Part shown: in pieces, positions 3,717 to 33,153 of the stretch
How positions within the stretch are numbered: the stretch's first letter is position 1
Layout of the letters: each line of letters opens with the position of its first letter
IMG/VR virus record: IMGVR_UViG_3300033402_000018
Strand: one strand, 5' to 3'
DNA from: a virus
DNA length: 55,764 nucleotides
The notes under the pieces: generated by a model
The model's input: the letters and a program-made list of their open reading frames with translations, nothing else
The model's database searches: none
What the model was told of the DNA's origin: nothing
Position numbers and translations under genes: made by a program

Positions 3717-3722
3717 TAGGGT

Positions 3723-4969: not shown

Positions 4970-5116
4970 CTTCGACCGCAACTACATGCGCCACATTGTG
5001 GAAGAAGAGGAAGAAACGCTGTTCAAACTTCTGCAAGAAGACAAGCCCACCAAATCCTAATTTCTCCAGTATTAAAGCCTTTAGTAGGCGGTATTCCGCC
5101 TTCGAAAGGAACGACT

Positions 5117-5503
5117 ATGTACAAAAGACCCGAAAGAAAGCATAAACCGAACACAGAAAAGTGCCCGTTCTGCGACAAAGATTTCAAACCAATTGATCCG
5201 TGGCGCGAATCACAATGCGTGCTCAACAAGCCGCTCTGGATGGTGATCCCACCCGGCGGCGTCCATCTCGAATGCCCGGTTCACCCCGAGGGACATCATG
5301 TCTTCGGCAGCCCGGTCATCTACATGGATTCTCCTATCCGTGTTCGTGAGAACAACTTACCTGACCCGTTAAACGCGCCGTGGTGCGAGTACGACCGCAC
5401 GAAGTATTCAGGCGGCTGCACCTACGATCACGATTCCAGCAAGGATTTGACGTTCGATTCCACCAAACCCTTCGGAACCACGACAGGCTCGAATTGGCGG
5501 TAA
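5117..5503 (+). CDS. hypothetical protein
   Basis: 128-aa ORF, SD-like AAAGGA upstream, CPFCDK Cys pair; no family recognised. Confidence 0.55.
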   Translation: MYKRPERKHKPNTEKCPFCDKDFKPIDPWRESQCVLNKPLWMVIPPGGVHLECPVHPEGHHVFGSPVIYMDSPIRVRENNLPDPLNAPWCEYDRTKYSGGCTYDHDSSKDLTFDSTKPFGTTTGSNWR

Positions 5504-5524
5504 TCTAGGAAAATTTGGTATTAG

Positions 5525-6106
5525 GTGGGCATGAGTCAATATGATCGTGTCTACCTAGACCAATGCTACGCACTCGCCAAGAACAGCACATGTGTGAAGG
5601 CCAAAGTTGGCGCTCAAGTGCGCGGACCCTACGGCGACATGTCTGACCACCTGCTAGGTCAAGGTTTTAACCAATCCCCCAATCCTGAGTTTGCTGACTG
5701 CGGCAAGCTGTGCGCCGGGGGCATCCGCTGCGGCATTAAGTCCGGTACTCGCGCTGAACTCTGTTACGCCGTCCACGCGGAGCAATACGCACTACTTCAG
5801 GCCGGATCGCTCGCGAAAGGGGCCACGATCTATGTCGCTTCCTACGATGACAAAGGCGAGAAACGCCTGAAGAACGCTGAACTCCCGCTGGGGCACCCGA
5901 TGCACGGTTTCTACTGTTCGGTGTGTGCTAGGCTCATCTGGGCTGCGGGAATCGCACGTGTAGTGACGGACGGTGTAAAGGGCCCGGTTGTTCTCAGCCT
6001 GAATGACATCTGGAAGACCTCTTACGGCGTGGCGGACAGTATTGACAAGAAGTACAAATCCTGCGGTTGCGAAGTAGGCAATTGCATCTGTGATATTGAG
6101 ACCTAA
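5525..6106 (+). CDS. cytidine/deoxycytidylate deaminase-fold protein (divergent)
   Basis: HAEQYALLQ catalytic motif and distal YCSVCARLI CxxC pair; GTG 5525 or ATG 5531 start. Confidence 0.7.
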   Translation: MGMSQYDRVYLDQCYALAKNSTCVKAKVGAQVRGPYGDMSDHLLGQGFNQSPNPEFADCGKLCAGGIRCGIKSGTRAELCYAVHAEQYALLQAGSLAKGATIYVASYDDKGEKRLKNAELPLGHPMHGFYCSVCARLIWAAGIARVVTDGVKGPVVLSLNDIWKTSYGVADSIDKKYKSCGCEVGNCICDIET

Positions 6107-6639
6107 TGTCAAACCTCGCTGAACTCAAAGACCTGCCCAAAGAGCGGAAGAAGTATGTCGTTGGCTTCTTGATTGATCCCACGTTGTCTAAGGTGGTGCT
6201 CGTGCGTAAGAACCGACCTGACTATCAACGCGGTCTGCTCAACGGCGTGGGCGGGAAAGTCGGAGACACGATCCTAGACGAAACCACGGAAGAGGCGATG
6301 GCCCGTGAGTTCCAAGAAGAGACGGGTGGGGTTGATCTCAACTGGCGGCGGTTCTTGCACATGATGACACCCCGGTCAGACCTGACATTTTTCTACGCCA
6401 TCGGCAATGTTCACTGTGTCCGAACACAGACCGACGAAGAAGTAGCGGTGTATGACATTTCCGATGTGATGGATCGCTGCGATACGATGCCCAATGTTCG
6501 CTGGTGCATTCAGATGGCACGCTCTATTGAGTTCGGTGAGCACGCGGATTACTTTGAAGTGGCTGAGATTTTGGAGACAGACTTACCAGCGAATTTTCAT
6601 TTCATCCCGGATGCAGCGCTTGAAAAAGAAGACCTATGA
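6106..6639 (+). CDS. Nudix hydrolase
   Basis: Nudix box GDTILDETTEEAMAREFQEETGG fits GX5EX7REUXEEXGU. Confidence 0.85.
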   Translation: MSNLAELKDLPKERKKYVVGFLIDPTLSKVVLVRKNRPDYQRGLLNGVGGKVGDTILDETTEEAMAREFQEETGGVDLNWRRFLHMMTPRSDLTFFYAIGNVHCVRTQTDEEVAVYDISDVMDRCDTMPNVRWCIQMARSIEFGEHADYFEVAEILETDLPANFHFIPDAALEKEDL

Positions 6640-12351: not shown

Positions 12352-13185
12352 ATGGCGAACAAACCCAGAACCGACTCGCTGGGTGACAGAATGAAGCGCT
12401 ACGAAGCAACCACGCGCTTCCTGTTGCCGCGCCGCACTTACACAATTCTTCGCGTTGATGGTCGTGCGTTCCACACGTGGACTCGCGGGCTTGACCGTCC
12501 CTATGACCGCAACTTCATGGCGTGCATGAACGAAGCCGCGCTCGAACTTTGCCAGCAGATCGCGGGAGCGCAGTTCGCTTACGTGCAGTCCGACGAAATC
12601 AGCCTGTTGGCTGTGGACTTCCTTGACATCAAAACCGAGCCGTGGTTTGAAGGCGGCGTGCAGAAATGGGCCAGCGTCGGCGCATCCATCGCAACGATGG
12701 CGTTCAACAATTGCTTGCTTCGGCTGAAGGGGGCAAACCTCGACGAGTCTGAGCTTAAGATCACCAAGAAGCTCCCGAACGCCACGTTCGACGCCCGCGT
12801 GTTCACCATCCCAGACTTGGTGGAAGTGGAAAATTATTTCGTGTGGCGGCAGCAGGATGCGGAACGCAACTCCGTCACAATGCTGGCGCAGAGCTACGCT
12901 TCCCACAAGCAACTCATGGGGAAAAATCGCGCCGCGCAGCATGAGATCATCCACAAAGCCGGGGACAATTGGGCGAAGCATCCTGTGCGTTTCAAGCATG
13001 GCGCTGTGATCCGCCGTGCCGCTGAAAACGAAGTCTGGACGGAAGTCGGCACCCATCATTTCAACTGGGTTGTGGACGAAGACACCCCAGCCTTCACCAA
13101 AGACCGCGCTTACATCCGTGGTCTGGTTCCTGTTGTTTGGGACAACGACCTTCTGGTCAGAAAGGCGGCAGCGAATGGAGAATAG
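12352..13185 (+). CDS. Thg1-like tRNA-His guanylyltransferase / 3'-5' RNA polymerase
   Basis: GDRMKRYE..LRVDGRAFHTWTRGL..AYVQSDEISLL..FDARVFTIP..NYFVWRQQDAERNS matches Thg1 hallmarks (RxDGxxFH, SDE, FDxR, WRQxD). Confidence 0.88.
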   Translation: MANKPRTDSLGDRMKRYEATTRFLLPRRTYTILRVDGRAFHTWTRGLDRPYDRNFMACMNEAALELCQQIAGAQFAYVQSDEISLLAVDFLDIKTEPWFEGGVQKWASVGASIATMAFNNCLLRLKGANLDESELKITKKLPNATFDARVFTIPDLVEVENYFVWRQQDAERNSVTMLAQSYASHKQLMGKNRAAQHEIIHKAGDNWAKHPVRFKHGAVIRRAAENEVWTEVGTHHFNWVVDEDTPAFTKDRAYIRGLVPVVWDNDLLVRKAAANGE

Positions 13186-19854: not shown

Positions 19855-21417
19855 ATGATGACACCGCAGGAAGAACGAATTCTCAACGCGGCACGCCAAA
19901 AGATCGAAGAGCAGCAGGAATTGCTCAGACGCCTGACCGCCCCAGCCTACCACCTTGGGATCGTCTGCGGTGTGTATCCGAAGACCGTGGTTGTGGACAC
20001 AGGTTCCCAACTCTTTGAGCTTGACCGCATCGAAGGCGGACCAGACATCAAGGTTGGTCAGGGCGTTGACATTCATCCGCAGACCGGGCAGATCGCCAAA
20101 GTTTCAGACTTCGTTTCCTACGGAAGCACCGGGACGGTATCGCAGATCGACGGCAACATCATCCAGATCAGTGTTCCGTCCGGCCTCATCACCACCGAAT
20201 ATTCGCTCATCCCGGTAAGCATCGGCGACAAGATCGTGATGAACAGCACGAACCACGTCATCATGAAGAAGCTGCCGACCGCGTCGAAGTATGCCTTCAA
20301 GACGAGCGCCGTGCTGGACTGGAAAGACATCGGCGCTTGCGAAGACGCGAAAAAAGAACTTATCGCCGCGCTCGAAACGCCTTACACCGCATCGCCGCTG
20401 TTCAAATTCTTCAACAAGGATCAGATCAAAGGCGCACTACTTTGGGGACGCCCCGGCAACGGCAAGACTTTGCTTGGACGAGCCGCCGCTGGCGCACTGG
20501 CGCGTATGCACGGCGTGGAAGCTAGGGACTCAGGCTTTATCTACATCAAGGGGCCAGAAATCCTTGACAAGTACGTTGGCGAAACTGAATCTCAGATTCG
20601 CGAAGCTTTCGCCTATGCCAAAGCGCACTTCAAGAAACACGGCTATCCGGCTGTCATGTTCGTGGACGAAGCGGACGCCGTAATGATGCGCCGTGGTTCG
20701 CGCACCGCATCCGGCATGGAAATGACCATCGTCCCGCAGTTCCTTTCTGAGATGGACGGCATCGAAGACAGCGGCGTGTTCGTGCTGCTGGCTACCAACC
20801 GTGCGGATACGCTCGATCCGGCAATCATTCGTCCCGGTCGCTGCGACCGCCGCGTCCATGTGGCACCACCCAACAAGCTCAACGCCCCGGAGATTTGGGA
20901 CATTCACATGCGCAAAGTGCCTGTAACTAACGGCGTGAGCAAAGAACAGTTGATCCAGAGCGTGAATGACACGCTGTTCAGCGAGCAATTTCCGCTCTAT
21001 TTGATTGACACGCCCAACGGACGCAAGACGTTCAGCCTTGGGAATCTTGTGTCAGGCGCTATGATCGCGGGAGCCGTGGAACGGGCATCAGCCATTGGCA
21101 TTGACCGTAATCTCATGGCCCTGTGCGGCACAACTCAGCCGACGCAGGATCAGCTTGCAAAGGTTGACCCAAAGAAATTTGACGGTCTCTCGCAAGGGGA
21201 CTTCACCGCCGCGCTTGCCGCCATGCACAAAGAGCAGTACGGCATGAACCATTTCGATGAACTGCGTGAGTTTATCGACATGCAGAAGCTCGAAGTCACG
21301 TCCATTGAGCAATGCCACGATGGGCAAAAGATCGAACGCCCGAAGCCGCAGCCGCGCAAGGAACCAGAGATCATCGGTGTTATTCCAATGCCGACAGGGA
21401 AGAAGTTCGACGCATAA
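19855..21417 (+). CDS. Mpa/ARC-type (proteasome-associated-like) AAA+ unfoldase
   Basis: N-terminal coiled coil (EERILNAARQKIEEQQELLRRL) plus OB-like segment. Walker A GRPGNGKT, Walker B VMFVDEAD. IKGPEILDKYVGETESQIR..TIVPQFLSEMDG..ATNRADTLDPAIIRPGRCDR closely parallels Mpa IKGPELLNKFVGETERHIR..VVPQLLSEIDG..ASNREDMIDPAILRPGRLD. Confidence 0.85.
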   Translation: MMTPQEERILNAARQKIEEQQELLRRLTAPAYHLGIVCGVYPKTVVVDTGSQLFELDRIEGGPDIKVGQGVDIHPQTGQIAKVSDFVSYGSTGTVSQIDGNIIQISVPSGLITTEYSLIPVSIGDKIVMNSTNHVIMKKLPTASKYAFKTSAVLDWKDIGACEDAKKELIAALETPYTASPLFKFFNKDQIKGALLWGRPGNGKTLLGRAAAGALARMHGVEARDSGFIYIKGPEILDKYVGETESQIREAFAYAKAHFKKHGYPAVMFVDEADAVMMRRGSRTASGMEMTIVPQFLSEMDGIEDSGVFVLLATNRADTLDPAIIRPGRCDRRVHVAPPNKLNAPEIWDIHMRKVPVTNGVSKEQLIQSVNDTLFSEQFPLYLIDTPNGRKTFSLGNLVSGAMIAGAVERASAIGIDRNLMALCGTTQPTQDQLAKVDPKKFDGLSQGDFTAALAAMHKEQYGMNHFDELREFIDMQKLEVTSIEQCHDGQKIERPKPQPRKEPEIIGVIPMPTGKKFDA

Positions 21418-22274: not shown

Positions 22275-24353
22275 ATGACTAACAAAGAACTGGTGCAGAT
22301 GTTCAACGCCGATCTGGAAGCAGCGCGGGACGCCTACTACAAGAAGGCGGAACCGATCATGACCGACGCGGAATATGACGCTATGGAAAAGAGTCTCCGC
22401 AATCTCATTACCGTGTTTCCGGGACTCGCCGAGTTCGCACCTGTCCTGAAGACGGTCGGCTCTGACCTTACGTCCAGTGGGCGCATCAAACACGCTGTCC
22501 CGATGCTCAGCATCGAAAACCAGTACACTGAAGAGGATTTCACTGGTCAGTATGACAAGTGGGGCGCGAACATGCCTGTTGTGCTGGAGCCGAAGTTTGA
22601 CGGCATCAGCGTCTCCATCCTGTATCTCAACGGCGTGCTTGAACGGGCGCTGACTCGCGGCGACGGCACGTCCGGCGAGAACATCACCGCAGCGGTTAAA
22701 GCGGTCAAATCCATCCCCCAGACTCTTCCGATAGATGTGTTCACCAGCCAATGCGAGATTCGCGGTGAGCTTGTGATGGCAAACGCCACACTCGAACGCA
22801 TCAACCGGGAAGCGGCGGCGATAGGCGGTAAGCAGTATTCCAGCACGCGCAACTTGACTGCCGGAACGATGAAGCAGCGTGACATGGACATCGTTGCCAG
22901 TCGAGACATTTTGCTCATGCCGTGGGATGTGCTTAGTGTCAGCGCTTGGAAAGATGGCAAGCAGTTATTGCCGGACAGCCGTTACGAGCGCTTGCTTCTA
23001 CTGAGCGAACACGGCTTTGAAGAGCCAAAGGGTATTCGTTGCTTCCTTCGGGATGCGATCATCCCGGCGCTTCACATTCTCCTGAAGCACAACAAAGAGC
23101 GTGCAGTTAATTGTGACGGCGTTGTCATGAAGGTAGATAGTGTGACCGCGTGCAAAGAGCTTGGCAACGGCTCCAAATACACGAACTGGCAGACCTGCTT
23201 CAAACCACAGTCTGCGTCCGGCACTACATACTTGCGTGAGATTCAATGGCAAGTGGGGCGCACGGGCGTCATCAGTCCGGTTGCGAAATGTGACGTGGTT
23301 GTCTTGGCTAGTGCTAACGTCACCAGTGCCAGCTTGAACAACATCACGTTCATCCGCAAGATGGGCCTGAAGCTGGGCGCGAAAGTTGAAATGCTGCGCT
23401 CCGGCGATGTCATCCCGCAGATCGTGCGCGTCATTGATGACGGTGACGAAGAGATCAACCCTCCAACTCACTGTCCTGAATGCAACAGTCTGACGGAGTT
23501 GCGGGACGAAGGCGGGCAAGGCATTATCCAGTGCTTCTGCACCAGCCCGTTCTGCCCCGCACAGATCATAGGCTACCTTTCGTTCGTCGGCAGTCGTGAC
23601 GTTCTGGAGATCGACGGTCTGGGGCCGGAAATGGCGCGTAAGCTGGTCGAAGGTGAGTTCACTCGCGATCTTGCTGAGCTTTATGAATTTCAGCAGGACA
23701 TGATGAACATCCTCACGAAATTTGACGAGGAAACACTGATTCGCGGCGGACGCAAAAAAGGCTTTGACGCCACTCTTCCGAAGATGGTTCGGTCATTGGA
23801 GAAGGCGAAAACCGCGCCGTGGGAACGCTGGATCAAAGCGCTTGGCATTCCGATGATTGGCGAGACGCTGGGCAAGGTGGTCGCGTCTACTCTCGATCTT
23901 CAGGAAAAGAGCATGGCTACGCTGGATGTTGACCTGATCCTTTTTGCCGGGAAAGAAGTAGACGGGTTCGGTGAAGCCAAGATGAGCGCGATCCGAAGCT
24001 GGGCGGAACGAAACGGTGAACTCTGCCGGAAGCTCTACGGACTTGGTATTCGTCCTACTCCGATGGAAAAGGTGGTGGTCGCCGAAGGCGCACCACTGAA
24101 AGGTGTCGTCTTCTGCATCACCGGGGAGTTCAGCGAAGACCGCGATGCCCTGACGAAGAAGCTGGTTGCGCTTGGCGCGGAAGCGAAGTCCGGTGTCACT
24201 AAGAAAATCAACCTCTTAATCGTCGGGGAGAGCGCCGGAAAAACAAAATTGACCAAAGCCAAGGAACTTGGCATCAAACAGGTAGGCAAAGAGTGGCTGG
24301 AACAGGCGCTTGGCGGACTTAAGCCTGATACCTTCGCCGCTGAGAGGGCGTAA
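22275..24353 (+). CDS. ligA: NAD-dependent DNA ligase LigA
   Basis: adenylation motif EPKFDGISV (KxDG), Zn finger CPECNS..C..C, HhH region, C-terminal BRCT (GVVFCITGEF); 692 aa. Confidence 0.93.
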   Translation: MTNKELVQMFNADLEAARDAYYKKAEPIMTDAEYDAMEKSLRNLITVFPGLAEFAPVLKTVGSDLTSSGRIKHAVPMLSIENQYTEEDFTGQYDKWGANMPVVLEPKFDGISVSILYLNGVLERALTRGDGTSGENITAAVKAVKSIPQTLPIDVFTSQCEIRGELVMANATLERINREAAAIGGKQYSSTRNLTAGTMKQRDMDIVASRDILLMPWDVLSVSAWKDGKQLLPDSRYERLLLLSEHGFEEPKGIRCFLRDAIIPALHILLKHNKERAVNCDGVVMKVDSVTACKELGNGSKYTNWQTCFKPQSASGTTYLREIQWQVGRTGVISPVAKCDVVVLASANVTSASLNNITFIRKMGLKLGAKVEMLRSGDVIPQIVRVIDDGDEEINPPTHCPECNSLTELRDEGGQGIIQCFCTSPFCPAQIIGYLSFVGSRDVLEIDGLGPEMARKLVEGEFTRDLAELYEFQQDMMNILTKFDEETLIRGGRKKGFDATLPKMVRSLEKAKTAPWERWIKALGIPMIGETLGKVVASTLDLQEKSMATLDVDLILFAGKEVDGFGEAKMSAIRSWAERNGELCRKLYGLGIRPTPMEKVVVAEGAPLKGVVFCITGEFSEDRDALTKKLVALGAEAKSGVTKKINLLIVGESAGKTKLTKAKELGIKQVGKEWLEQALGGLKPDTFAAERA

Positions 24354-24613
24354 TGCACGATCTGCATGTAGGGCACATTCTCTTCTACTTGGTCGCGTTT
24401 GAAATCGCGGCTTTCGTTCTGACTTCCGTCATCCTGCTCATTAAGTGGACGCGAGCAGGGCACCCATTTAGTTCCGCGTGGGGCATAGTTTTCGGCAGTG
24501 AAGTTCGTTTCTTCGAGTTCCTGCCGCTGTTCGTGACCATCAACGGGATTAGCTTTGTGATCTGGATTCTATGGCTCGTCGCGTCCCACTTCGGCATAAC
24601 GTTGTCTTGGTGA
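24353..24613 (+). CDS. small membrane protein
   Basis: 86 aa, three hydrophobic helices; TAATG junction with ligA. Confidence 0.5.
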   Translation: MHDLHVGHILFYLVAFEIAAFVLTSVILLIKWTRAGHPFSSAWGIVFGSEVRFFEFLPLFVTINGISFVIWILWLVASHFGITLSW

Positions 24614-24616
24614 TCT

Positions 24617-25390
24617 ATGTTTTCTGAAGCGCTCAAAATCGAGATCAAAGCCTACGTTTGGAACGAAGGCGAGACGCCCATTGAGCTTGTGTGGGATGGG
24701 CCGGACAATTTCGACCACATCCAGCACCAGCTTCGTGACCATCTCAACGAGAAAGATTTCGGTAAGATCGTCGCCGTTCATGGCACCGGATTGGACGCCG
24801 ATCTGACGGAGCTTCACTATCGAGCTTTCACCGATCCGTTCCGTGGGCGCAAGATCGTTGCTGGCGTCACAGCGGAAGATTGCCAGAACCAGTATGAAGA
24901 AGTCATCACCAACTACCACCAAAAGGTGTTCAGCCCCCGCGACTTGTATCAGTTGAAGCCAGCGGACACAAGCTATTTCCTGTGGCATTTTGTGTCTGTT
25001 CACCTTCAGGAGGAACTTGGTATCTACGATCTGGATTTGGATTCTGCCGAAGAAGGCAAGCGGATCGAGATTCGCACCATCGCTGACATTTGCCATGACG
25101 GGCGGCGCACGTGGACGTTGCAGACAGTTTGGTTCGACGGCGTTCCGGTTATGGTGGTCAACAGCAGTGGGCGAGACGGCGACGAATATCACCAGCGCTG
25201 GATTACGAACCTGACGCAGTTCGGTGAACTGCTTAACTATTTGCGGAACTTCACCAAGAGACAGATTGAAGGTTTTGTGGCTGAAGACACGATCATCCCC
25301 AACATGACGGAGTTCTACGGCGGCACGATTCATGACTTTTACGATGTCGTTAGCCAGCGGCCGATTCCGGCGAAAGTCCGAATTGGGTAG
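24617..25390 (+). CDS. hypothetical protein
   Basis: 257-aa ORF; no motif recognised. Confidence 0.6.
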   Translation: MFSEALKIEIKAYVWNEGETPIELVWDGPDNFDHIQHQLRDHLNEKDFGKIVAVHGTGLDADLTELHYRAFTDPFRGRKIVAGVTAEDCQNQYEEVITNYHQKVFSPRDLYQLKPADTSYFLWHFVSVHLQEELGIYDLDLDSAEEGKRIEIRTIADICHDGRRTWTLQTVWFDGVPVMVVNSSGRDGDEYHQRWITNLTQFGELLNYLRNFTKRQIEGFVAEDTIIPNMTEFYGGTIHDFYDVVSQRPIPAKVRIG

Positions 25391-25444
25391 ATTTTTTGAA
25401 TCGCTTTACGGTAAGATGGAATCTTAGAGCGTAGGAGCAATATT

Positions 25445-26113
25445 ATGTCCAAACTGAGCGATGCACTCAAACACATTCCCGGCGCAAGCGCCATTGTTGA
25501 TTTTGACGAAGATACGAAGCCAGCGCCAGTCCCAACCAAGCCCGTTTCAGAGCACCCGGCGTTCAACTTGACCCCCGGAGCTTTCAGCGCCGCACCAGCG
25601 GTCCCAGCATCCGGCTCGCCGTTCGCGGTTCCAAGCACCGTGGTGATTGACGAAGGCGTGTACCAGAGCATTCTGAAAAAGACCAACTTTGACGCGACGT
25701 CGGTCGGTCAGACGATCCACAAGTATTACGATGCCCTCGAAGGCACCGGGATGGACCCGAACGCACGGTTCAAAGCAGCATTGAAACAAGCCGCCGCGCT
25801 GGATCACATTGCACCTGACCAAGTTCTTGCGACATTCGATCAGTTGACCGCCGCGCTGGAGAAAGACGCGCAGGGATTCGCCGGAGTTGCTTCGAGCGTG
25901 GAAGCCAAGGAAATCACTGCACGCCAGCAGAAGTTGCAGGACATCGCACAGCAAATCGCGCAGCTTCAACAGCAACAGACACAGGTTCAGGGTGAGCTTG
26001 TTGACGCGCAGACCACGCACGCCAACGCGACCGCCCAATACAACATGGCAAAGCAGCGCCGGGAGCAGGAAATCACCGCTCAGAAGGCGCAGTTCGCGGC
26101 CCTGTTGAAATAA
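25445..26113 (+). CDS. hypothetical coiled-coil protein
   Basis: 222 aa; Pro/Ala-rich N-terminal part, Gln-rich heptad C-terminus (QQIAQLQQQQTQVQGELV). Confidence 0.6.
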   Translation: MSKLSDALKHIPGASAIVDFDEDTKPAPVPTKPVSEHPAFNLTPGAFSAAPAVPASGSPFAVPSTVVIDEGVYQSILKKTNFDATSVGQTIHKYYDALEGTGMDPNARFKAALKQAAALDHIAPDQVLATFDQLTAALEKDAQGFAGVASSVEAKEITARQQKLQDIAQQIAQLQQQQTQVQGELVDAQTTHANATAQYNMAKQRREQEITAQKAQFAALLK

Positions 26114-26139
26114 CGAGCTTGCCGCTCGTAGCTTAATGC

Positions 26140-26167
26140 GTGGCAAACCGTGCGCACGGTTTGCCAC
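26140..26167 (+). other. strong intergenic hairpin (possible terminator or processing site)
   Basis: GTGGCAAACCGT-gcgc-ACGGTTTGCCAC perfect 12-bp stem, 27 nt after stop 26113; no U-tract. Confidence 0.7.
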
Positions 26168-26293
26168 ACGGAAAAGAGTCCCTCTTTAAGTGGGAAAGAT
26201 GTTCTCGGACTTCGCAAGGGGCACCGAGTATCCGGGCACGGATAGGTTCAAATCCAACCGGGCGGCATTGATTTCAGTAGTCAAGCAGGTAGG

Positions 26294-26319
26294 TTTCGCG
26301 GTATACTTTCGCGGTATAC
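26294..26319 (+). repeat. 13-bp perfect tandem duplication carrying two TATACT boxes
   Basis: TTTCGCGGTATAC x2 (26294-26306, 26307-26319) followed by partial TCGCG; 25 nt upstream of ATG 26345. Confidence 0.9.
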
Positions 26320-26344
26320 TCGCGAAGAAAAGGAAAACGACTCT

Positions 26345-27436
26345 ATGAGCACCACACCTTCACCACTCGCCAACTTCAATCCGAAGTCGTTCTGGAAAAA
26401 GCCGGAAGGCGTTCCCGGAATGATCCTGATGGGTCTGTTACTCGGACTAGGGGGCTGGGGACTGTACATCGCACTCCCCTTTATTATCACCCTGCTGACC
26501 AACGTCATCTACACCGCCGCGCTCGTCGGCGTCATCGCTGCTCTGGCGTACATCGTCATGAACGGGACCGTTCAAACGCTCGCCAAGAACATTTTCCAGT
26601 CCATCTGCCGGGGCATCGCCACTTGCTATACCACGATTGATCCCATCGGCATCCTGAAGAACCAGCTTGACGACATGAAGAAGGCAAAGCGTGAACTGGA
26701 TGACACCATTCAGCGTTTCGCTGGCTCTGACAACAGCCTTCGCACCAACATCGCCAAGAAGCAGCAGGAGATCGCGCAGTTGAAGGCGCAGTCACAGGCG
26801 GCTGACCGTATGTTGGCGAGCAAGTCCGATCCATTGGAGCGGGAACGCATCAAGCTGCAAGGCGAAACGTATCTGGAGAAAGCTGGATTGCTGATGCAAG
26901 CAGTTGCGCAGCTTCAGGCTCTTGAAGATCAGACCGCCGACATGCTTGGCAAGTTCCGTCACTGGAGTCAGGTATCCGACGCCAAGATTGACCGCACCGC
27001 GATGCGCGTTGAAATCTTCGCCGAACAGCGCAAGATGATTTTGGACGCCAAGAAGACGCTCAGCGTCGGCCTCCGCTTGCTCAAGGGCGATGACGAACAG
27101 TTGAAGCTGGTGGACGGCGCTATCGAATTCCTCACGGAAGACGCAGCCCGCACGCTTGGTGAAATCCAAGAGTTCAACCGCTTCTCTGACAAGATGTTGA
27201 CCGACATCGACATCAGCAACAGCGCCAACGCTGAAATGGCACGCGCCAAGTTCGCCGAAATGGGAACGAAGCTCGAAGCCAGCGCTAACCGTCCGTCCGC
27301 CGTAGATCAGTTGCAGGCGGCGATGAACGGCGCTGGGCCGATCAGCATCCCATCGTCTCCGGTTGTGGGACGCGGGACAGCGGCGAGCGGTGGTCAGTCA
27401 GACAACACGGACTACAGCAGCCTGTTCAACAAATAA
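26345..27436 (+). CDS. membrane-anchored coiled-coil protein, PspA/IM30-like (tentative)
   Basis: two N-terminal TM helices, then DPIGILKNQLDDMKKAKRELDD..KKQQEIAQLKAQSQAA long heptad region resembling PspA (DPxKL..I.EME..); family call tentative. Confidence 0.5.
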   Translation: MSTTPSPLANFNPKSFWKKPEGVPGMILMGLLLGLGGWGLYIALPFIITLLTNVIYTAALVGVIAALAYIVMNGTVQTLAKNIFQSICRGIATCYTTIDPIGILKNQLDDMKKAKRELDDTIQRFAGSDNSLRTNIAKKQQEIAQLKAQSQAADRMLASKSDPLERERIKLQGETYLEKAGLLMQAVAQLQALEDQTADMLGKFRHWSQVSDAKIDRTAMRVEIFAEQRKMILDAKKTLSVGLRLLKGDDEQLKLVDGAIEFLTEDAARTLGEIQEFNRFSDKMLTDIDISNSANAEMARAKFAEMGTKLEASANRPSAVDQLQAAMNGAGPISIPSSPVVGRGTAASGGQSDNTDYSSLFNK

Positions 27437-27442
27437 GTTTGC

Positions 27443-27476
27443 CGGGGCTGAAAAGATTTGAAGCTTTTCGGCCCCG
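27443..27476 (+). other. 13-bp intercistronic stem-loop
   Basis: CGGGGCTGAAAAG-8 nt-CTTTTCGGCCCCG (one G-U) between stop 27436 and ATG 27507. Confidence 0.65.
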
Positions 27477-27506
27477 CTTGACATCGAAGAAACGAGGAGA
27501 TTCACA

Positions 27507-29327
27507 ATGCACATCAAACCGCAAGCAAAGATCGCTCTGGTAGTTGTTCTGGTTCTGGGCGTAGTCTTCGGACTCCGCACCGCCGCAGAGCATGGATTGA
27601 TCCCAACCCCCGGCATCATGAAGGCGTTGGTGCCTCAGAAGGCTGTCCTGCCTGATGTAAAGGATGCTCAAGTTCAGAACGTCGCCCCTGTAGCCCTCCC
27701 GCAAGACTCCCCGGCTAACGTTCAAGCCACGCCGATTCGTGGCGCGATCTGGGAATGGAACGCTCAGATGGGCATGATCTTCGCCAACGGCGGCGCAACC
27801 ACGACCGCTGGTTCGTTGATGGCGAAGCGCAACGTCAACCTGATTCTGTATCGTCAGGACGACACCAGCAAGATGCAAGAAGACCTGATCGCTTGCGCCA
27901 AGGAACTGCATGACGGCAATCCGTCTTGCTCGAACGGTGCAAACTTCGTGGTCATCATGGGAGACGGCGCTGGTCAGTTTGCCGCCGCAGTCAACCCGCA
28001 GCTTGCTAAGCTGGGCCCGCAATATCTCGTGAAGGTCATCGCCGCCACTGGTTACAGCCGTGGTGAAGATGCTTTCATGGCTCCCCCGGACGTGAAGAAG
28101 AGTCCCGCCGCTGCGAAGGGACTTCTGGTTGAAGGCGTGCTCCGCGATGGCGACTGGAATATTGCCATGAAGTGGGCTGCTGACAACAACATCCCCAACA
28201 ACCCGGACGAGAAGACCTACGACGCCAACGCTCTCAACTGGATTAACGCGCCGGACTACAATACCGCCGCGTCTGATTACGTTGCTGGCAAGTGCGAAGA
28301 CCGCAAGGTCGTAAAAGACGGTCACCCGACTGGCGAAACGAAGCACGTCTGCGTCAATGCGGTCGTGACTTGGACTCCCGGCGACGTGACGGCTGCTACT
28401 CAAAAGGGCGGCTTGGTCAAGGTGGTTTCGTCCAAGCAGTACCGTTCGCAGATGCCCGCTGTGGTCCTTGGCCCCGGCAAGTTCTTCGCCGACAATCGTG
28501 ACGAAGTAACCAACATGATCGCTGCCATCTTTGAAGGTGGAGATCAGGTTAAGGCGTTTGACACGTCTCTGCGCAAGGCTGCGGTCATTTCGACCAAGGT
28601 CTACAATGACGAAGGCGATCAGACTTCGCACAACGGCGATTTCTGGTATCGCTACTTCAAGGGCGTCCCGTACAAGGATCAGACCACGGGCGCGACTGTT
28701 GAGCTTGGCGGCTCCGCAGTGAACAACCTTGATGACAACCTCATCCTGTTCGGCTTGAAGCCCGGAACCAACGACAACTTCCGCAGCACCTACACGGTGT
28801 TTGCCAACATCGACGTTCAACAGTATCCGCAGTTGTTCAAAGAGACGCCGATTCCAGACGTGAAGTTGGTCGAAGACAAGTCTTACATCACCGGAGCACA
28901 GGCTGTTCTGTCCGGCGAAGGTGACACTGGTTCTGAAGCCAGCGCTCCGGCTTACGAGCAGGAAGCCAGCGGCGAGACCGTTTCCAGCCGCTCGTACAAC
29001 ATCAACTTCCAAACGGGAAGTGGGCAGCTTACGCCGCAAGGCGAACAGCAGCTTCGCGATCTGAAAGATGGTCTGGCAATCACCGGACTGTTCATTCAGG
29101 TGGACGGATACACCGACAACACTGGCTCTGATAGCGTTAACATCCCGCTGTCTCAGGCTCGTGCGGAGTCCGTGCGCAACTTCCTGCAACGCAACTATCC
29201 CGGCAACTTCCCGAACAAACGGTTCGCGGTCGCCGGACATGGTTCGCAGAACCCAATCGCGTCGAACGCCACGGCGGACGGTAAAGCTCAGAACCGCCGC
29301 GTGACGATCACGTTGAAAGGCAACTAA
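27507..29327 (+). CDS. periplasmic substrate-binding-like domain fused to OmpA-family peptidoglycan-binding domain
   Basis: N-terminal TM/signal (IALVVVLVLGVVFGL). C-terminus FQTGSGQLTPQGEQQL..VDGYTDNTGSDSVNIPLSQARAESV..GHGSQNPIASNATADGKAQNRRVTI is a classic OmpA_C motif. The central ~400 aa look SBP-like, next to ABC genes. Confidence 0.75.
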   Translation: MHIKPQAKIALVVVLVLGVVFGLRTAAEHGLIPTPGIMKALVPQKAVLPDVKDAQVQNVAPVALPQDSPANVQATPIRGAIWEWNAQMGMIFANGGATTTAGSLMAKRNVNLILYRQDDTSKMQEDLIACAKELHDGNPSCSNGANFVVIMGDGAGQFAAAVNPQLAKLGPQYLVKVIAATGYSRGEDAFMAPPDVKKSPAAAKGLLVEGVLRDGDWNIAMKWAADNNIPNNPDEKTYDANALNWINAPDYNTAASDYVAGKCEDRKVVKDGHPTGETKHVCVNAVVTWTPGDVTAATQKGGLVKVVSSKQYRSQMPAVVLGPGKFFADNRDEVTNMIAAIFEGGDQVKAFDTSLRKAAVISTKVYNDEGDQTSHNGDFWYRYFKGVPYKDQTTGATVELGGSAVNNLDDNLILFGLKPGTNDNFRSTYTVFANIDVQQYPQLFKETPIPDVKLVEDKSYITGAQAVLSGEGDTGSEASAPAYEQEASGETVSSRSYNINFQTGSGQLTPQGEQQLRDLKDGLAITGLFIQVDGYTDNTGSDSVNIPLSQARAESVRNFLQRNYPGNFPNKRFAVAGHGSQNPIASNATADGKAQNRRVTITLKGN

Positions 29328-29351
29328 GAGTCGTACCCCGTTCATTCGGCT

Positions 29352-29390
29352 GGGCAGGGATGAAATATTCCCTGCCCTTTTTTATTTTTT
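29352..29390 (+). terminator. Rho-independent terminator
   Basis: GGGCAGGGA-tgaaatat-TCCCTGCCC followed by TTTTTTATTTTTT. Confidence 0.85.
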
Positions 29391-29405
29391 CTGCATCTAA
29401 GAGAC

Positions 29406-29621
29406 ATGAGACCGAAACCAGCAGACGTTGAATTGAAGATCGCTGAGAGTGTCGGCTGGTACATTGACGTAACTAACGAAGAGAAGTGGCTGGTGCGTGA
29501 CGGCGGCGTGAATCAATGGGTCGGCCCCGGCGCAGCTACGGACGCGGAACTGAAATTGTGGGTTCTGCTGCTGACCAAGATTGTGACGAAAGAAGCCAAG
29601 GAATTTTTGGAGAGCCTGTAA
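29406..29621 (+). CDS. hypothetical protein
   Basis: 71-aa ORF right after terminator and GCATCTAAG motif. Confidence 0.5.
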   Translation: MRPKPADVELKIAESVGWYIDVTNEEKWLVRDGGVNQWVGPGAATDAELKLWVLLLTKIVTKEAKEFLESL

Positions 29622-30406
29622 TGAGTGAGTTCATTTCCGCTTACACACCGAACAAACCCACCAAGGTATCCACGGTCAAGATGCTGATCGCTAGCTATGC
29701 CGCGTTCTTCTTCGTGTTCTGGTTCTTCTCGCCGTTCCCGTTCCTGCCTTCAATCGGTGAAACATGGGCAGCGTGGGTTGAGCAGTGGGGGCAAGGCTTA
29801 GGCGGGGAACTCATTACTAGCTTCGAAGCCAACTTGCAAGCTATCGCTCTTTCTTCTCTCATCTCGCTGGGACTTGCCTATTTGACAGTGCTCGCCGGAT
29901 TCCGTCCAATCGTCACGTTCCTGTCCAAGCTACGCTTCCTTTCAATGGTCGGCTTGAGCTTTTTCTTCACGGTTGCCACGAAGACACAGCACCAACTCAA
30001 GATCAGCTTGTTGGTGTTCAGCATCAGTGTGTTCTTCGTGACCGGGATGGCTGACGTGATCGAGTCAATTCCGAAAGAACAGTATGATCTTGCACGCACG
30101 CTGCGCATGGGGCCGTGGCGCACCGTCTGGGAAGTAGTAGTGCTGGGTCAAATTGACAAGGCGTTTGATGTGCTGCGCCAGAACGCCGCCATCGGATGGA
30201 TGATGCTTACGATGATTGAAAGCATGGTTCGTTCCGAAGGCGGCATTGGCGCTATGCTCACCACCGCGAACAAACACTTTTACCTTAACGCAGTCTTTGC
30301 CATCCAGATCACCATTCTGTTGATGGGGTTGGGGCAGGACTACTTGATCGGCGCATCGAAGAAGCTCTTCTGTCCGTATGCCGCGCTGGGATCGGAGCGC
30401 AAGTGA
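29621..30406 (+). CDS. ABC transporter permease (NitT/TauT-type binding-protein-dependent family)
   Basis: ATG 29621 (TAATG). About 6 TM helices. EAA-like loop ESIPKEQYDLARTLRMGPWRTVWEVVVLGQI. Confidence 0.8.
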   Translation: MSEFISAYTPNKPTKVSTVKMLIASYAAFFFVFWFFSPFPFLPSIGETWAAWVEQWGQGLGGELITSFEANLQAIALSSLISLGLAYLTVLAGFRPIVTFLSKLRFLSMVGLSFFFTVATKTQHQLKISLLVFSISVFFVTGMADVIESIPKEQYDLARTLRMGPWRTVWEVVVLGQIDKAFDVLRQNAAIGWMMLTMIESMVRSEGGIGAMLTTANKHFYLNAVFAIQITILLMGLGQDYLIGASKKLFCPYAALGSERK

Positions 30407-30798
30407 AGAACCTTGAAGGATACGCGCTGATAGCGCTCGTGCTGTTCACATTGTTCACATTGTTCACCATTGGCTGCGGAAGCACGCCTCCTGTATGGAC
30501 AGCCTATACTGCGGAAGCTGTGTACCTGAACGAACCCGGCTCCGTGTCAATTCTGATGCGTAACGAAGATAACAGTCTTTCGGTGAAAAAGTTTTATGTC
30601 AGTACCGATGCACTGATTATCAAAGACGACATCGTTGATTCCCGCGCACATCCATGGGTGAGTGTTGAGCAAGAGAGTGAGATGGGCGACTTGGTGACTA
30701 CCAAAATCACAGTCCACGTTCACAGCATCAAAGAAATCCAGCCCGGACACTGGAACCACGGAAAGTTCGGACAGGGACAAGATCAGCAGATAGAATAG
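30403..30798 (+). CDS. putative lipoprotein
   Basis: GTGA overlap; signal with LFTLFTLFTIGCGS lipobox-like Cys; 9-bp TGTTCACAT x3 repeat at 30443-30469 encodes LFT repeats. Confidence 0.55.
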   Translation: MKNLEGYALIALVLFTLFTLFTIGCGSTPPVWTAYTAEAVYLNEPGSVSILMRNEDNSLSVKKFYVSTDALIIKDDIVDSRAHPWVSVEQESEMGDLVTTKITVHVHSIKEIQPGHWNHGKFGQGQDQQIE

Positions 30799-30807
30799 GG
30801 GAAGACA

Positions 30808-31263
30808 ATGGGCTTCATATTTGGGATAGTGGTTGGGATTTGCCTTGCGGCGCTTATAGGGCATTGCTGGCAGGAAGACGGCTGTGACCACACATGGAAA
30901 GTCACCGCTGCGCATCAGATGATGCTCGTACACACCATCCACGGCGTTACCATTGGGGAGCCGGATGATGGGCAACCAGTCACCGAAGTGCTTTCTCGCT
31001 GCACCGTCTGCGGGGAAACGGTCACCGAAGAACTCTCAGGTCACTGGACTTACGAGCAGCTATCCGGTGAGCCGGATGCGTCCGGGGAAAACACAACTTT
31101 TTGGCGAACGGCGAAAAAGCCGGAGCCGGAGCAAACCGATATTTTTTGGCGAACGGCGAAAAAGCCGGAGCCGGAGCAAACCGATGATCGAAGTGGGACA
31201 GGAAGTGACGCGCTGGCTGGCGGGGACAATCCCGATGCAGCTAAAAGTGACAGCGGTAACTGA
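30808..31263 (+). CDS. hypothetical membrane-anchored protein with 15-aa tandem repeat
   Basis: N-terminal TM; FWRTAKKPEPEQTD(I) x2. Confidence 0.5.
   Translation: MGFIFGIVVGICLAALIGHCWQEDGCDHTWKVTAAHQMMLVHTIHGVTIGEPDDGQPVTEVLSRCTVCGETVTEELSGHWTYEQLSGEPDASGENTTFWRTAKKPEPEQTDIFWRTAKKPEPEQTDDRSGTGSDALAGGDNPDAAKSDSGN
31098..31185 (+). repeat. perfect 43-nt direct repeat at 45-nt period
   Basis: TTTTTGGCGAACGGCGAAAAAGCCGGAGCCGGAGCAAACCGAT at 31098-31140 and 31143-31185. Confidence 0.9.
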
Positions 31264-31447
31264 AGACCGAATCATCTGCGGCGACTACGAGTTCGACAAA
31301 CGGACTGGCGCTGAGATTGATGACTTCATGGGATTCGGGCCGGACTTCACAGGCAGCTACATCAAGGTTCCCGGCGTGAACTATGTTCAGGCTTCTGATG
31401 AAGAAGCACTGGCACGTCTCGAACAAATCGGCAAGAAAGGCGAATGA
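31184..31447 (+). CDS. hypothetical protein
   Basis: ATG 31184 at the end of the repeat, frame of ORF 30953..31447; 87 aa globular-looking; overlaps previous gene tail by 80 nt. Confidence 0.45.
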   Translation: MIEVGQEVTRWLAGTIPMQLKVTAVTEDRIICGDYEFDKRTGAEIDDFMGFGPDFTGSYIKVPGVNYVQASDEEALARLEQIGKKGE

Positions 31448-31448
31448 T

Positions 31449-31622
31449 ATGAATGCCGCGATCAAAGAAGTTATCGAGAAGCACGTCTGGGCGTATGGGC
31501 CTAACCGCAAAGGCTGCGTTATGTTCATGACGGATGGCGTCAGGGAAGTAGCCAACGAACTTGAAATCAGCTATCGGGCGGCGGAAGAGCTTGTCCGATG
31601 CTGGATTGGGGAGACATTCTAA
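31449..31622 (+). CDS. hypothetical protein
   Basis: ATG 31449, 57 aa, frame of ORF 31383..31622. Confidence 0.4.
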   Translation: MNAAIKEVIEKHVWAYGPNRKGCVMFMTDGVREVANELEISYRAAEELVRCWIGETF

Positions 31623-32497
31623 TGGCGGCACTTTATCCATACACCTACGGGCCTACGCTTCTTAAAATCGACAACGTTTGCCTATCGGCGTCGTCTGACG
31701 GTCTGCGGTTGCTCGAACACGAAGAACCGGGGAGCCGCCCCATTCTGAAGAACGTGAGCGCCGAAATCAAGAAGATCGACCGTGTTGGATACGTTAACGG
31801 TCAGATCGTAGGATTCATCGGCCCGTCTGGTATCGGCAAAACACAGCTTTTCCGCATCATTGCCGGACTCAACAAGCCAACATCAGGTTCCGTCACGATC
31901 AATGGCGGCAAAGTGGTGCAGGCAGGTGAAGTAGGCGTCGTGGCGCAGAATTACCCGCTCTTTGCGCATCGCACGGTCATGAGTAACCTCATGCTCGCCG
32001 CCAAACAGAAAGAGAAAGACCCCAAAGTAGCGCATGACAAAATCATGACGTTCTTGAACGAATTCAAGCTGGCGGACAAGGCCCCATTGTATCCGGCGCA
32101 GTTATCAGGTGGGCAGAAGCAGCGCATCGCCATCATTCAGCAAATCCTGTGCTCAGAGCATTTCCTGCTCATGGATGAGCCTTTCTCCGGCTTGGACATC
32201 ATCGTAGAAGGCAAATGCACTGAGTTGATCTTGAAGGTTGCCAACATGGACGGCTTGAACACCGTGATCGTAGTCACGCATGACATTTCAGCCGCCGCAG
32301 CCATCGCCGATCACATCTGGGCATTGGGGCGTGAGCATGATGCTGAAGGCAACCCGCTCCCCGGCGCGAGTATTGTGAAGACCTACGACCTGATAAACGA
32401 AGGTCTGTGCTGGACACAGTTGGGTGAACACGCGATGGTTCAACCAAACATGGTTGAGTTCATCCGCCAAGTCAAGGAAGATTTCTACAAGTTCTAA
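31622..32497 (+). CDS. ABC transporter ATP-binding protein (NitT/TauT-like)
   Basis: Walker A GPSGIGKT, signature LSGGQKQR, Walker B LLMDEPFSGLD, H-loop VVTHD; TAATG junction. Confidence 0.88.
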   Translation: MAALYPYTYGPTLLKIDNVCLSASSDGLRLLEHEEPGSRPILKNVSAEIKKIDRVGYVNGQIVGFIGPSGIGKTQLFRIIAGLNKPTSGSVTINGGKVVQAGEVGVVAQNYPLFAHRTVMSNLMLAAKQKEKDPKVAHDKIMTFLNEFKLADKAPLYPAQLSGGQKQRIAIIQQILCSEHFLLMDEPFSGLDIIVEGKCTELILKVANMDGLNTVIVVTHDISAAAAIADHIWALGREHDAEGNPLPGASIVKTYDLINEGLCWTQLGEHAMVQPNMVEFIRQVKEDFYKF

Positions 32498-32512
32498 CAT
32501 TTGTGGTAAAAT
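32484..32512 (+). promoter_or_regulatory. extended -10 promoter candidate
   Basis: TCTACA-N17-TAAAAT with TG (TTGTGGTAAAAT); 17 nt upstream of ATG 32529 with SD AGAGAGGAG. Confidence 0.35.
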
Positions 32513-32528
32513 CCAGAGAGGAGTTTTT

Positions 32529-32741
32529 ATGGCGAAGAAAGAAGCGAAAGTTTTGAAGCTGGTCTGCAAGTGCGGCGAATGCACCCATTGGGAAATTCTG
32601 CTGACTCGTAGCAGCGCGGGCAACTACACGGAGAACGAGCACATCAAGTGCATGACCTGCGGCACCTTGATTGAAGTGAGTTTCAGCGTCGGGCCTCACG
32701 AAGGTCTGCACTTCGAGAGACAGGGCAAGAACGAGAAGTAA
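32529..32741 (+). CDS. hypothetical zinc-ribbon protein
   Basis: CKCGEC..CMTCG two CxxC pairs; 70 aa; strong SD. Confidence 0.5.
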   Translation: MAKKEAKVLKLVCKCGECTHWEILLTRSSAGNYTENEHIKCMTCGTLIEVSFSVGPHEGLHFERQGKNEK

Positions 32742-32744
32742 ACC

Positions 32745-32885
32745 ATGCTGGATCGCGCCTTAGACTGGACGGGGGATCACCCGGTGATAACCGTGGTGAT
32801 CTGCCTTCTCCTGTTGACAGGCGGGTGCGGTATTAGCATTCATGTCGGCATCCTTTCGTCTCAGACGAAGTTGATGCCCTATTGA
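32745..32885 (+). CDS. small membrane peptide (46 aa), tentative
   Basis: found by eye; MLDRALDWTGDHPVITVVICLLLLTGGCGISIH..; fills gap between 32741 and 32892. Confidence 0.3.
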   Translation: MLDRALDWTGDHPVITVVICLLLLTGGCGISIHVGILSSQTKLMPY

Positions 32886-32891
32886 GGAACT

Positions 32892-33152
32892 ATGGCATAC
32901 GTCATTGCAGAGCCGTGTATCGGCGTCAAAGACACAGCATGTGTCGATGCGTGTCCAGTGGATTGCATTCACCCCAAAAAAGGCACACCTGAGTTCGAGA
33001 AAGAGCCGCAGCTTTACATTGATCCCGTAGAGTGCATCGACTGCGGCGCTTGCGTCCCGGTTTGCCCAACGGCCGCAATTTTCCCGGTGGACGATTTGCC
33101 CGAACAGTGGAAGAAATTCACCGAGATCAACGCCAAGTATTTTGGAAGGTAA
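32892..33152 (+). CDS. ferredoxin (7Fe-type, 3Fe-4S + 4Fe-4S)
   Basis: MAYVIAEPCIGVKDTACVDACPVDCIHP and CIDCGACVPVCPTAAIF cluster motifs; 86 aa. Confidence 0.9.
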   Translation: MAYVIAEPCIGVKDTACVDACPVDCIHPKKGTPEFEKEPQLYIDPVECIDCGACVPVCPTAAIFPVDDLPEQWKKFTEINAKYFGR

Positions 33153-33153
33153 C

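Follow-up and report, generated by a model that had tools for sequence, protein, structure and literature searches.

Why would a virus carry a gene for a periplasmic binding protein that has its own anchor for the cell wall, and to which system does such a protein belong? This question is raised by the IMG/VR virus record IMGVR_UViG_3300033402_000018, a DNA stretch of 55,764 nucleotides which we call here the window. Its gene C (27507..29327, plus strand) encodes a 606-amino-acid (aa) protein in which an N-terminal transmembrane (TM) or signal segment is followed by a linker, a binding domain of NrtA-like fold and an OmpA-like domain. C is the third gene of a conserved envelope module of five genes, designated A to E in their order on the DNA. 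The reading that we favour, and regard as probable, is that C is the wall-tethered receptor of an ABC importer composed of D and E, and that it works within this module together with A and with B, a PspA/Vipp1-like protein.

The receptor gene and its putative wall anchor

The open reading frame (ORF) of C starts with an ATG that has an AGGAG Shine-Dalgarno sequence 8 nt upstream. A 639-aa ORF on the minus strand (27426-29345) runs antisense to C over its whole length; given the thousands of homologues of C, it was treated as a shadow ORF. Residues 5-28 (27519..27590, +) form a helix in the AlphaFold2 model and coincide with the hydrophobic stretch IALVVVLVLGVVFGL / KIALVVVLVLGVVFGLRTAAE. No lipobox was found at the N-terminus of C, and the helix is predicted to be a Sec signal peptide or, if it is not cleaved, a signal anchor. 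It is followed by a proline-rich linker, of low confidence in the model, which extends to about residue 60.

The C-terminal residues 501-597 (29007..29297, +) constitute an OmpA-like peptidoglycan-binding domain, identified by Pfam PF00691 (E=1.1e-18); the score of 67.9 bits exceeds the cut-off of 27.2, and the match covers positions 2-98 of the 98 in the profile. An earlier reading of this DNA, made from its letters alone (the sequence-only reading), had described a 606-aa ORF with an N-terminal signal or TM segment and a textbook OmpA_C domain, and our results agree with it in each of these features. Sequence searches of PDB with the C-terminus found OmpA-like domains with E down to 3e-16, and the nearest sequence relatives of the domain in NCBIfam and PDB are YiaD, YfiB, TssL/TagL, MotB/MotY and Rv0899. 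In an alignment of 120 diverse family members the residues T536, D537, G540, N545, L548, S549, R552, A553 and N596-R597-R598-V599 are conserved in at least 90%. In the OmpA of Acinetobacter baumannii (PDB 3td3-3td5) the conserved Asp271 and Arg286 contact diaminopimelate. In C, D537 lies in the motif GYTD and R552 in SQARA, and 3td3 matches C with E=2.9e-10 by sequence search. Anchors of the YiaD, YfiB, TssL/TagL, MotB/PomB and Pal type resemble the C-terminal domain of C with E values from 1e-15 to 1e-27 and share with it the motifs TD...G....N..LS..RA and NRRV. However, none of these anchors matched C in its first 480 residues, which include the ABC-type binding domain.

How constant is this fusion? 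With the N-terminal 490 residues of C, one search returned 2419 proteins at E<=1e-3, and an exhaustive search returned 481 clusters at 50% identity. Nearly all full-length representatives are about 600 aa long, and an NRRV-like OmpA motif closes the sequence in 104 of 120. Because the length, the ending and the OmpA motif residues are all conserved, the fusion of a binding domain with an OmpA domain is a stable trait of the family and not a local accident.

The central domain of the receptor

Residues ~60-480 of C had no match in Pfam, NCBIfam, PHROGs or the sequences of PDB, even when family profiles were compared with PDB, and neither Pfam NMT1 nor NMT1_2 was found in the window protein. Since sequence searches matched the OmpA domain only, the central domain was resolved by structure prediction alone. 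The AlphaFold2 model of C, computed with 37 homologues (predicted local distance difference test, pLDDT, 74; predicted template modelling score, pTM, 0.66), was compared with PDB by Foldseek. In this model residues 62-478 (27690..28940, +) form a two-lobed alpha/beta periplasmic-binding-protein domain of the NrtA/CmpA/NMT1 type, which aligns with NrtA/CmpA-type receptors over about 420-440 columns. The nitrate receptor NrtA (2g29) matched with E=9e-10 and a target TM-score (TMt) of 0.62, and the bicarbonate receptor CmpA (2i48, 2i49, 2i4b) with E=4e-9 to 1.5e-8 and TMt 0.63. They were followed by the NMT1-like protein 3qsl (E=3.2e-7, TMt 0.63), the thiamin-binding protein 4nmy (E=3.4e-7, TMt 0.58) and the CmpBCD regulatory domain 9uai (E=9.2e-7, TMt 0.56). 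The best match overall was 6aeo, an artificial MBP-TssL fusion, because in this construct, too, a binding protein is fused with a domain of OmpA type. When 21 diverse members of the C family were compared with Pfam, NMT1_2 appeared weakly in three and NMT1 in two (best E=5.7e-4), with scores below threshold and far under the family cut-offs. The sequence-only reading had taken the central domain for a periplasmic binding protein; a fold of this kind was found, therefore its view of C as a receptor stands.

NrtA and CmpA are the best full-domain structural matches of C, yet their identity to it in the structural alignment is 10-11%. Their transporters, NrtABCD and CmpABCD, are of the same class as that of the window, with an NtrB-like permease and an NtrCD-like ATPase. 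Being lipoproteins, both receptors, like C, do not float free; a lipid anchor stands in the place where C has its N-terminal helix and OmpA domain. Unlike them, C has no membership at the level of Pfam, and its conserved polar residues are mainly acidic, so its ligand is probably different. Receptors of the SsuA/TauA/ThiY type are related to C by the weak NMT1 and NMT1_2 scores, by the matches to 3qsl and 4nmy and by the TauC-like permease. However, they are about 300-340 aa long (318 modelled residues in 3qsl, 299 in 4nmy), whereas the domain of C has about 420 aa with insertions such as the beta-hairpin 263-282, and they are not known to have a wall anchor.

What could the ligand be? Residues S184, D188, N232, N244, P291 and G402 are invariant in the family, and W84, M151-G152, G186-E187, D214-G215-D216, D239, W289, D293, W380, G401/S403 and Y429 are nearly so. 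Most of them lie directly behind modelled beta-strands, and class II binding proteins usually hold their ligand just after the beta-strands. The conserved residues in these positions are rich in Asp, Glu, Asn and Trp. Their acidic and aromatic character is a weak hint that the ligand is not an anion and differs from nitrate and bicarbonate.

Four cysteines of the domain deserve mention on their own. In the clade uniting Terriglobales and phages, C130 and C141 (window 27894-27929) are invariant, while C263 and C282 (28293-28352), which bracket the beta-hairpin insertion, are at least 90% conserved. Both pairs are possible candidates for periplasmic disulfides.

Conservation of the five-gene module

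Which genes accompany the receptor in other genomes? We surveyed the loci of 80 out of 365 relatives from species-representative genomes together with 44 IMG/VR loci; the locus search used the closer alignment A1, and the sample is biased toward Acidobacteriota-like relatives. The bacterial taxa covered include Terriglobales, Ca. Sulfotelmatobacter, Thermoanaerobaculia, Holophagales, Vicinamibacteria, Chthonomonadales and others.

The clearest counterpart is found on a 1.34-Mb contig of Acidobacteriaceae, where proteins of 226 aa and 353 aa precede a receptor of 68% identity, a 261-aa permease and a 273-aa ATPase. Both this set of five genes and its order recur in the window. Identity to the chromosomal proteins of Terriglobales is 37% for A, 27% for B, 68% for C, 62% for D and 64% for E. 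More generally, among the approximately 130 related loci of bacteria and viruses, most of those with sufficient flanking sequence have C, D and E together. In 86 of 105 loci B is the gene immediately upstream of C, and in 71 of 95 phmmer detected A upstream of B; further divergent A-like proteins can be recognised by eye in distant phage loci. The linkage of C, D and E supports the earlier proposal that the receptor is cognate to the permease and ATPase that follow it. What did not stand is the picture of a lone receptor and transporter, in which A and B were missed.

The loci of Thermoanaerobaculia and Holophagales (L061-L085) have another arrangement, D-E-X-C, where X is a membrane protein of about 335-373 aa with a TM hairpin and a coiled coil. 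X was considered as a divergent B, but hhalign gave a probability of 0.2%, so we regard it as a separate partner, apparently analogous to B but not homologous with it.

Genes A and B

Gene A (25445..26113, +), the first gene of the module, encodes a soluble protein of 222 aa with a short conserved N-terminal motif, a linker rich in Pro and Ala, and a C-terminal coiled coil. Its equivalent at this position in the Terriglobales chromosome L003 is a 226-aa protein, with which it shares 37% identity. An identification of A as PspA is not supported, as Pfam and PDB yield generic coiled-coil matches only.

Gene B (26345..27436, +) encodes a protein of 363 aa with two TM helices and a helical hairpin of PspA/Vipp1 type, as judged from AlphaFold2, Foldseek and Pfam. 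The model has helices at residues 23-72, 74-95, 100-159, 163-242, 251-287 and 293-315, of which 100-159 and 163-242 form the long hairpin. Its sequence motifs are KSFWxxPEG, DPIGIL at the opening of the long hairpin, and the C-terminal DYxxLF(K). The six best Foldseek matches of B in PDB are all Vipp1 (E 3e-3 to 1.3e-2), with SynPspA and Asgard ESCRT-IIIB lower in the ranking. Pfam PspA_IM30 was found in three of 17 members of the B family (best E=2e-4), and some homologues carry PF04012 or the JGI name 'phage shock protein A'. We therefore assign B, with moderate confidence, as a putative membrane-anchored PspA/Vipp1-like protein of the ESCRT-III superfamily.

The 70-nt spacer between B and C contains an imperfect 12-bp inverted repeat (27443..27474, +; GGGGCTGAAAAG … CTTTTCGGCCCC) with no T-run after it; the terminator scan flagged it as a terminator-like site on the minus strand only.

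The transporter genes and their spacers

Gene D (29621..30406, +) encodes a 261-aa putative ABC importer permease, weakly assigned by Pfam and NCBIfam as BPD_transp_1 and NtrB-TauC-like. NCBIfam gives ntrB with E=2.7e-6 and TauC with E=4e-3, both far under the equivalog cut-offs. Gene E (31622..32497, +) encodes a 291-aa ABC ATPase (Pfam ABC_tran, E=8e-26) with intact Walker A (GPSGIGKT), signature (LSGGQKQR), Walker B (LLMDEPFSGLD) and H-loop (VTHD) motifs. Its best NCBIfam matches are the importer ATPases PhnT2, CysA, SaoA, NtrCD and TauB. The start of E is most likely M9 at 31622, because this codon forms a TAATG overlap with the preceding 79-aa ORF and independent gene calls also give 291 aa.

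Thus the permease and ATPase which the sequence-only reading had placed after the receptor are present, though a 71-aa ORF and about 1.2 kb of small ORFs intervene. The 71-aa ORF (29406..29621, +), which is called on independent contigs, lies between C and D, and its stop overlaps the start of D (TAATG). Between D and E (30403..31622, +) there are small ORFs, among them those of 131, 151 and 79 aa. The first of these (30403-30798) overlaps the stop of D and has a lipoprotein-like N-terminus (…LFTIGCGS…). TAATG overlaps couple the 79-aa ORF (31383-31622) translationally to E and the 71-aa ORF to D. No homologue of the 71-aa ORF or of the ORFs in the D-E spacer was detected in the bacterial loci examined. 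These small ORFs within the transporter operon may be accessory subunits or morons.

The D-E spacer has two further peculiarities. A perfect 45-bp tandem duplication (2.0 copies) at 31098-31185 yields repeated peptides in two overlapping reading frames, and the gene content of the spacer varies among nearly identical contigs (L133 compared with L132 and L134).

Directly 3′ of C there is an intrinsic-terminator-like hairpin with a T-run (29352..29390, +), detected by a terminator scan. Its 9-bp stem with seven G-C pairs occupies 29352-29377 and is followed by TTTTTTATTTTTT. The earlier reading had placed a terminator here, and this is indeed the best terminator-like site in the region 24000-33500; the total of such sites in the region, 13 compared with 10.6 expected from shuffled sequence, is not above expectation. 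Comparable hairpins stand 3′ of the C homologue in L004, L088, L007, L026 and L131, which include phage and bacterial loci. By analogy with other ABC operons, the hairpin may raise the level of receptor mRNA over that of the membrane components.

Carriage by phages

Receptor gene C is present in 44 IMG/VR contigs, of which 14 are 200-530 kb long. The 462-kb 'uncultured phage' genome GenBank LR756500.1 contains A, B, C, D and E, all in order. The window itself shares several flanking genes, in order, with the IMG/VR UViG contigs L088 (463 kb) and L089 (102 kb). Viral homologues of C share between 33% and 86% identity with the window protein, and some viral receptors have no sampled bacterial relative above 38%; these nearest-neighbour identities indicate wide viral diversity, with a bacterial sample that is biased. 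Because viral receptors span this range and some lack a close relative among the sampled bacteria, the module is long established in huge phages. That huge soil phages and Acidobacteriota-type bacteria share it is explained most simply by acquisition from the latter.

No full-length counterpart of C was found in BFVD, which gave OmpA-domain matches only, or in PHROGs, which matched the OmpA part only. In this respect the judgement of the sequence-only reading that a wall-anchored solute receptor is unusual for a phage holds for both databases. It does not hold for huge phages, where the receptor is recurrent, and the architecture is known from bacteria.

No capsid, terminase or tail gene was recognised within the 55.8-kb window. 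Nearly all its ORFs of at least 150 aa lie on the plus strand, and five tRNA genes are clustered at 35639-36311, four for tRNA-Ser (GCT, CGA, GGA, TGA) and one for tRNA-Leu (TAA). Genes for ThyX, dCMP deaminase, NUDIX, Thg1, RlaP, NAD-ligase and SprT are also present, with PHROG matches among them.

Comparison with described systems

Comparative genomics has already brought to light bacterial operons with PspA, TM-Snf7, a periplasmic binding protein (PBP) fused with OmpA, and ABC components (Popp et al., mSystems 2024, PMC11237479). Table S3 of this paper gives the architecture 'SIG+PBPB+OmpA' beside an ABC permease and ATPase, PspA and TM+Snf7, with OGG56892.1 from Candidatus Handelsmanbacteria as an example. 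The authors propose that the OmpA part attaches to peptidoglycan, and the PBP part to the solute which the linked transporter handles (PMC11237479). The likeness to the window includes a receptor composed of signal, PBP and OmpA parts, one permease, one ABC ATPase and a membrane-anchored protein of the ESCRT-III superfamily, a position taken in the window by B with its weak Vipp1 matches.

There are differences too. The order in those operons is PspA, receptor, permease, ATPase, TM-Snf7 and double AAA+, while in the window it is coiled-coil protein, TM-PspA-like protein, receptor, permease and ATPase. The separate soluble PspA has as its counterpart protein A, which is soluble, coiled-coil and in the right place, but has generic matches only. 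The adjacent double (inactive and active) classical AAA+ component, present in only some of the operons of Popp et al. (PMC11237479), has no counterpart beside the module of the window, where a single-domain AAA protein is encoded 4 kb upstream. This 520-aa classical AAA ATPase (19855-21417) has one Pfam AAA stretch at residues 195-336, and its best PDB matches align with the CDC48/VCP D2 region (E=4e-75). We rejected it as a constant member of the module: synteny at this position is confined to the nearest relatives among phages (L004-L006, L089), and bacterial and most viral loci lack a counterpart within ±6-8 kb. An equivalence with the AAA+ partner of PspA/Snf7 operons is possible, though the linkage is weak.

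On this comparison of genes the module of the window appears to be a phage-borne member of a computationally described bacterial system, and its novelty is limited because both the architecture and the operon type have already been described in this way. The portions of Popp et al. used here report no phage-borne copies (PMC11237479). A precedent for PspA-like genes in huge phages is offered by the huge gut 'Jug' phages (Sci Adv 2026, PMC12880540), where pspA-like genes lie next to terD; neither an ABC transporter nor OmpA is mentioned in that paper.

Among the transport genes of phages are the PstS-type auxiliary metabolic genes (AMGs) of cyanophages, free receptors which rely on host membrane components. 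They resemble C in being phage-encoded periplasmic binding proteins of an ABC importer. Unlike them, the phage of the window carries a wall-anchored receptor, permease and ATPase, plus two further partners.

One more neighbour is of interest here. An 815-aa protein (50013-52460, +) contains domains of the major vault protein (MVP), with Pfam MVP_shoulder at E=3e-26 and Vault_3 at E=5.5e-11, and in locus L121 a homologue of 58% identity (3701-6115) immediately precedes the A-B-C-D-E module. A band-7/SPFH-like fold is ascribed to the MVP shoulder. Because of this fold, and because Popp et al. link band-7 proteins to PspA (PMC11237479), a functional tie of the vault-domain protein to the module is possible.

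Proposed function and alternative explanations

How might the module work? In the reading we favour, C would be the extracytoplasmic solute receptor of an ABC importer formed by D and E, each presumably a homodimer, and this importer would represent a divergent branch of the nitrate/sulfonate/taurine (NitT/TauT-like) class. The N-terminal hydrophobic segment would export C, and a flexible linker of about 35 residues would lead to the NrtA-like domain, which would capture a specific small solute and dock on D2E2. The OmpA-like domain would bind peptidoglycan non-covalently and hence hold the receptor in the periplasm near the transporter instead of letting it diffuse freely. The transporter would be one half of the module. 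The other half would be B, with its ESCRT-III-superfamily domain in the cytoplasm, and A as a soluble coiled-coil partner, both acting at the cytoplasmic face of the transporter's membrane. A likely role of the whole module is maintenance or remodelling of the inner membrane coupled to the uptake of one specific small solute. For the phage the benefit would be a host envelope kept sealed, energised and supplied through a long infection.

Several observations weigh against this reading. The Pfam score of D for BPD_transp_1, 25.7 bits, is just below the cut-off of 26.4, the model of C is moderate in confidence (pLDDT 74), and the structural matches of B are weak, with none at E<=1e-3 and coiled coils matching promiscuously. 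A terminator-like hairpin stands between C and D, and the extra phage ORFs part C from D and D from E, so co-expression of C, D and E is not guaranteed. In Thermoanaerobaculia and Holophagales the gene upstream of C has no detectable homology to B, and the PspA-like partner is not universal because X replaces it there. Finally, we found no experimental work on any member of the C family in the literature.

Could the locus be a plain set of nutrient-acquisition AMGs? A complete high-affinity importer would then feed virion production with a source of N, S or C, the solute being of the nitrate, nitrite, cyanate, bicarbonate, sulfonate or taurine type, and A and B would be unrelated neighbours. 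That phages carry transport AMGs such as PstS is well established and counts in favour of this explanation, as do NrtA and CmpA as the best structural matches of C, the affinity of the permease to NtrB/TauC and the resemblance of the ATPase to CysA, NtrCD and TauB. However, A and B are kept beside C in bacteria and phages across 33-86% identity, and chance adjacency is hard to uphold for genes conserved in both. Genes for nitrate or nitrite reductase, sulfonate monooxygenase or carbonic anhydrase were absent from the ±8-kb flanks on the bacterial contigs examined. The conserved residues of the binding domain, Asp, Glu, Asn and Trp, also appear to differ from the Lys, His and Gln of anion sites. 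We consider this explanation unlikely, though it survives best among the alternatives.

Less likely still, in our estimate, is that C is an envelope tether or sensor instead of a part of an importer. It would staple the inner-membrane ABC complex to peptidoglycan in the manner of MotB, TagL/TssL or YiaD, its binding domain would sense a periplasmic cue, for example a cell-wall fragment, and the energy of ATP hydrolysed by E would go into conformational signals to the PspA-like B and not into net import. Relatives of the OmpA domain do anchor envelope machines (YiaD, YfiB, TssL/TagL, MotB/MotY), and the adjacency of B and C persists where D and E sit on the other side. The link to membrane remodelling, stressed by Popp et al. 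(PMC11237479), points in the same direction. But D appears to belong to the fold family of type I importer permeases (BPD_transp_1) and not to the mechanotransmission type of MacB/FtsX, and the strong conservation of binding-domain residues suggests one specific small ligand.

It is most improbable that the window is a bacterial or other mobile-element contig and C an ordinary host gene: the lack of recognised capsid, terminase and tail genes and the chromosomal Terriglobales genes as closest named relatives of C would fit this, but the one-strand ORFs, the five clustered tRNA genes, the ThyX, dCMP deaminase, NUDIX, Thg1, RlaP and ligase genes with PHROG matches, the synteny with IMG/VR UViG contigs of 102-463 kb, the occurrence of the module in the deposited 462-kb phage genome LR756500.1, and the small ORFs inside the module that are absent from the bacterial loci examined all speak against it.

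Other genes of the window

Several genes outside the module relate to RNA. A Thg1-like tRNA-His guanylyltransferase is encoded at 12352-13185 (E=2e-26), a 209-aa protein (828-1457) matches a PHROG annotated as histidyl-tRNA synthetase (E=5e-40), and an RlaP RNA-repair nucleotidyltransferase lies at 52726-53562 (E=2e-17). The 692-aa NAD-dependent ligase LigA (22275-24353) occupies the same syntenic position in L088 and L089, while the loci L004-L006, related at 84%, have at this position a 370-aa ATP-dependent ligase (L004 4144-5256). This is a case of non-orthologous replacement between close relatives. The same one-strand array includes an 86-aa 2x[4Fe-4S] ferredoxin (32892-33152), a dual-specificity phosphatase (1480-2190) and a SprT-like metalloprotease (34545-35228).

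Biological meaning of the module

The module is widespread, with at least 365 loci in species-representative genomes, and is known from genome comparison alone. As its five genes remain intact in huge phages across 33-86% receptor identity, a selectable benefit during infection can be argued. We suggest tentatively, and with more doubt than confidence, that phages use a complete ESCRT-III/PspA and tethered-importer system to remodel or repair the host inner membrane in coupling with solute uptake. This suggestion is based on diverse huge phages, represented by at least 14 IMG/VR contigs of 200-530 kb and by LR756500.1. If it is true, the locus would be a virus-encoded bacterial system of the ESCRT-III type with a dedicated transporter, and its 606-aa receptor would recognise a ligand class new for NrtA-like binding proteins. 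Phage transport genes are usually viewed as single PstS-like receptors; here the phage carries a complete wall-anchored transporter, in a compact gene set on which the coupling between membrane maintenance and solute transport could be tested.

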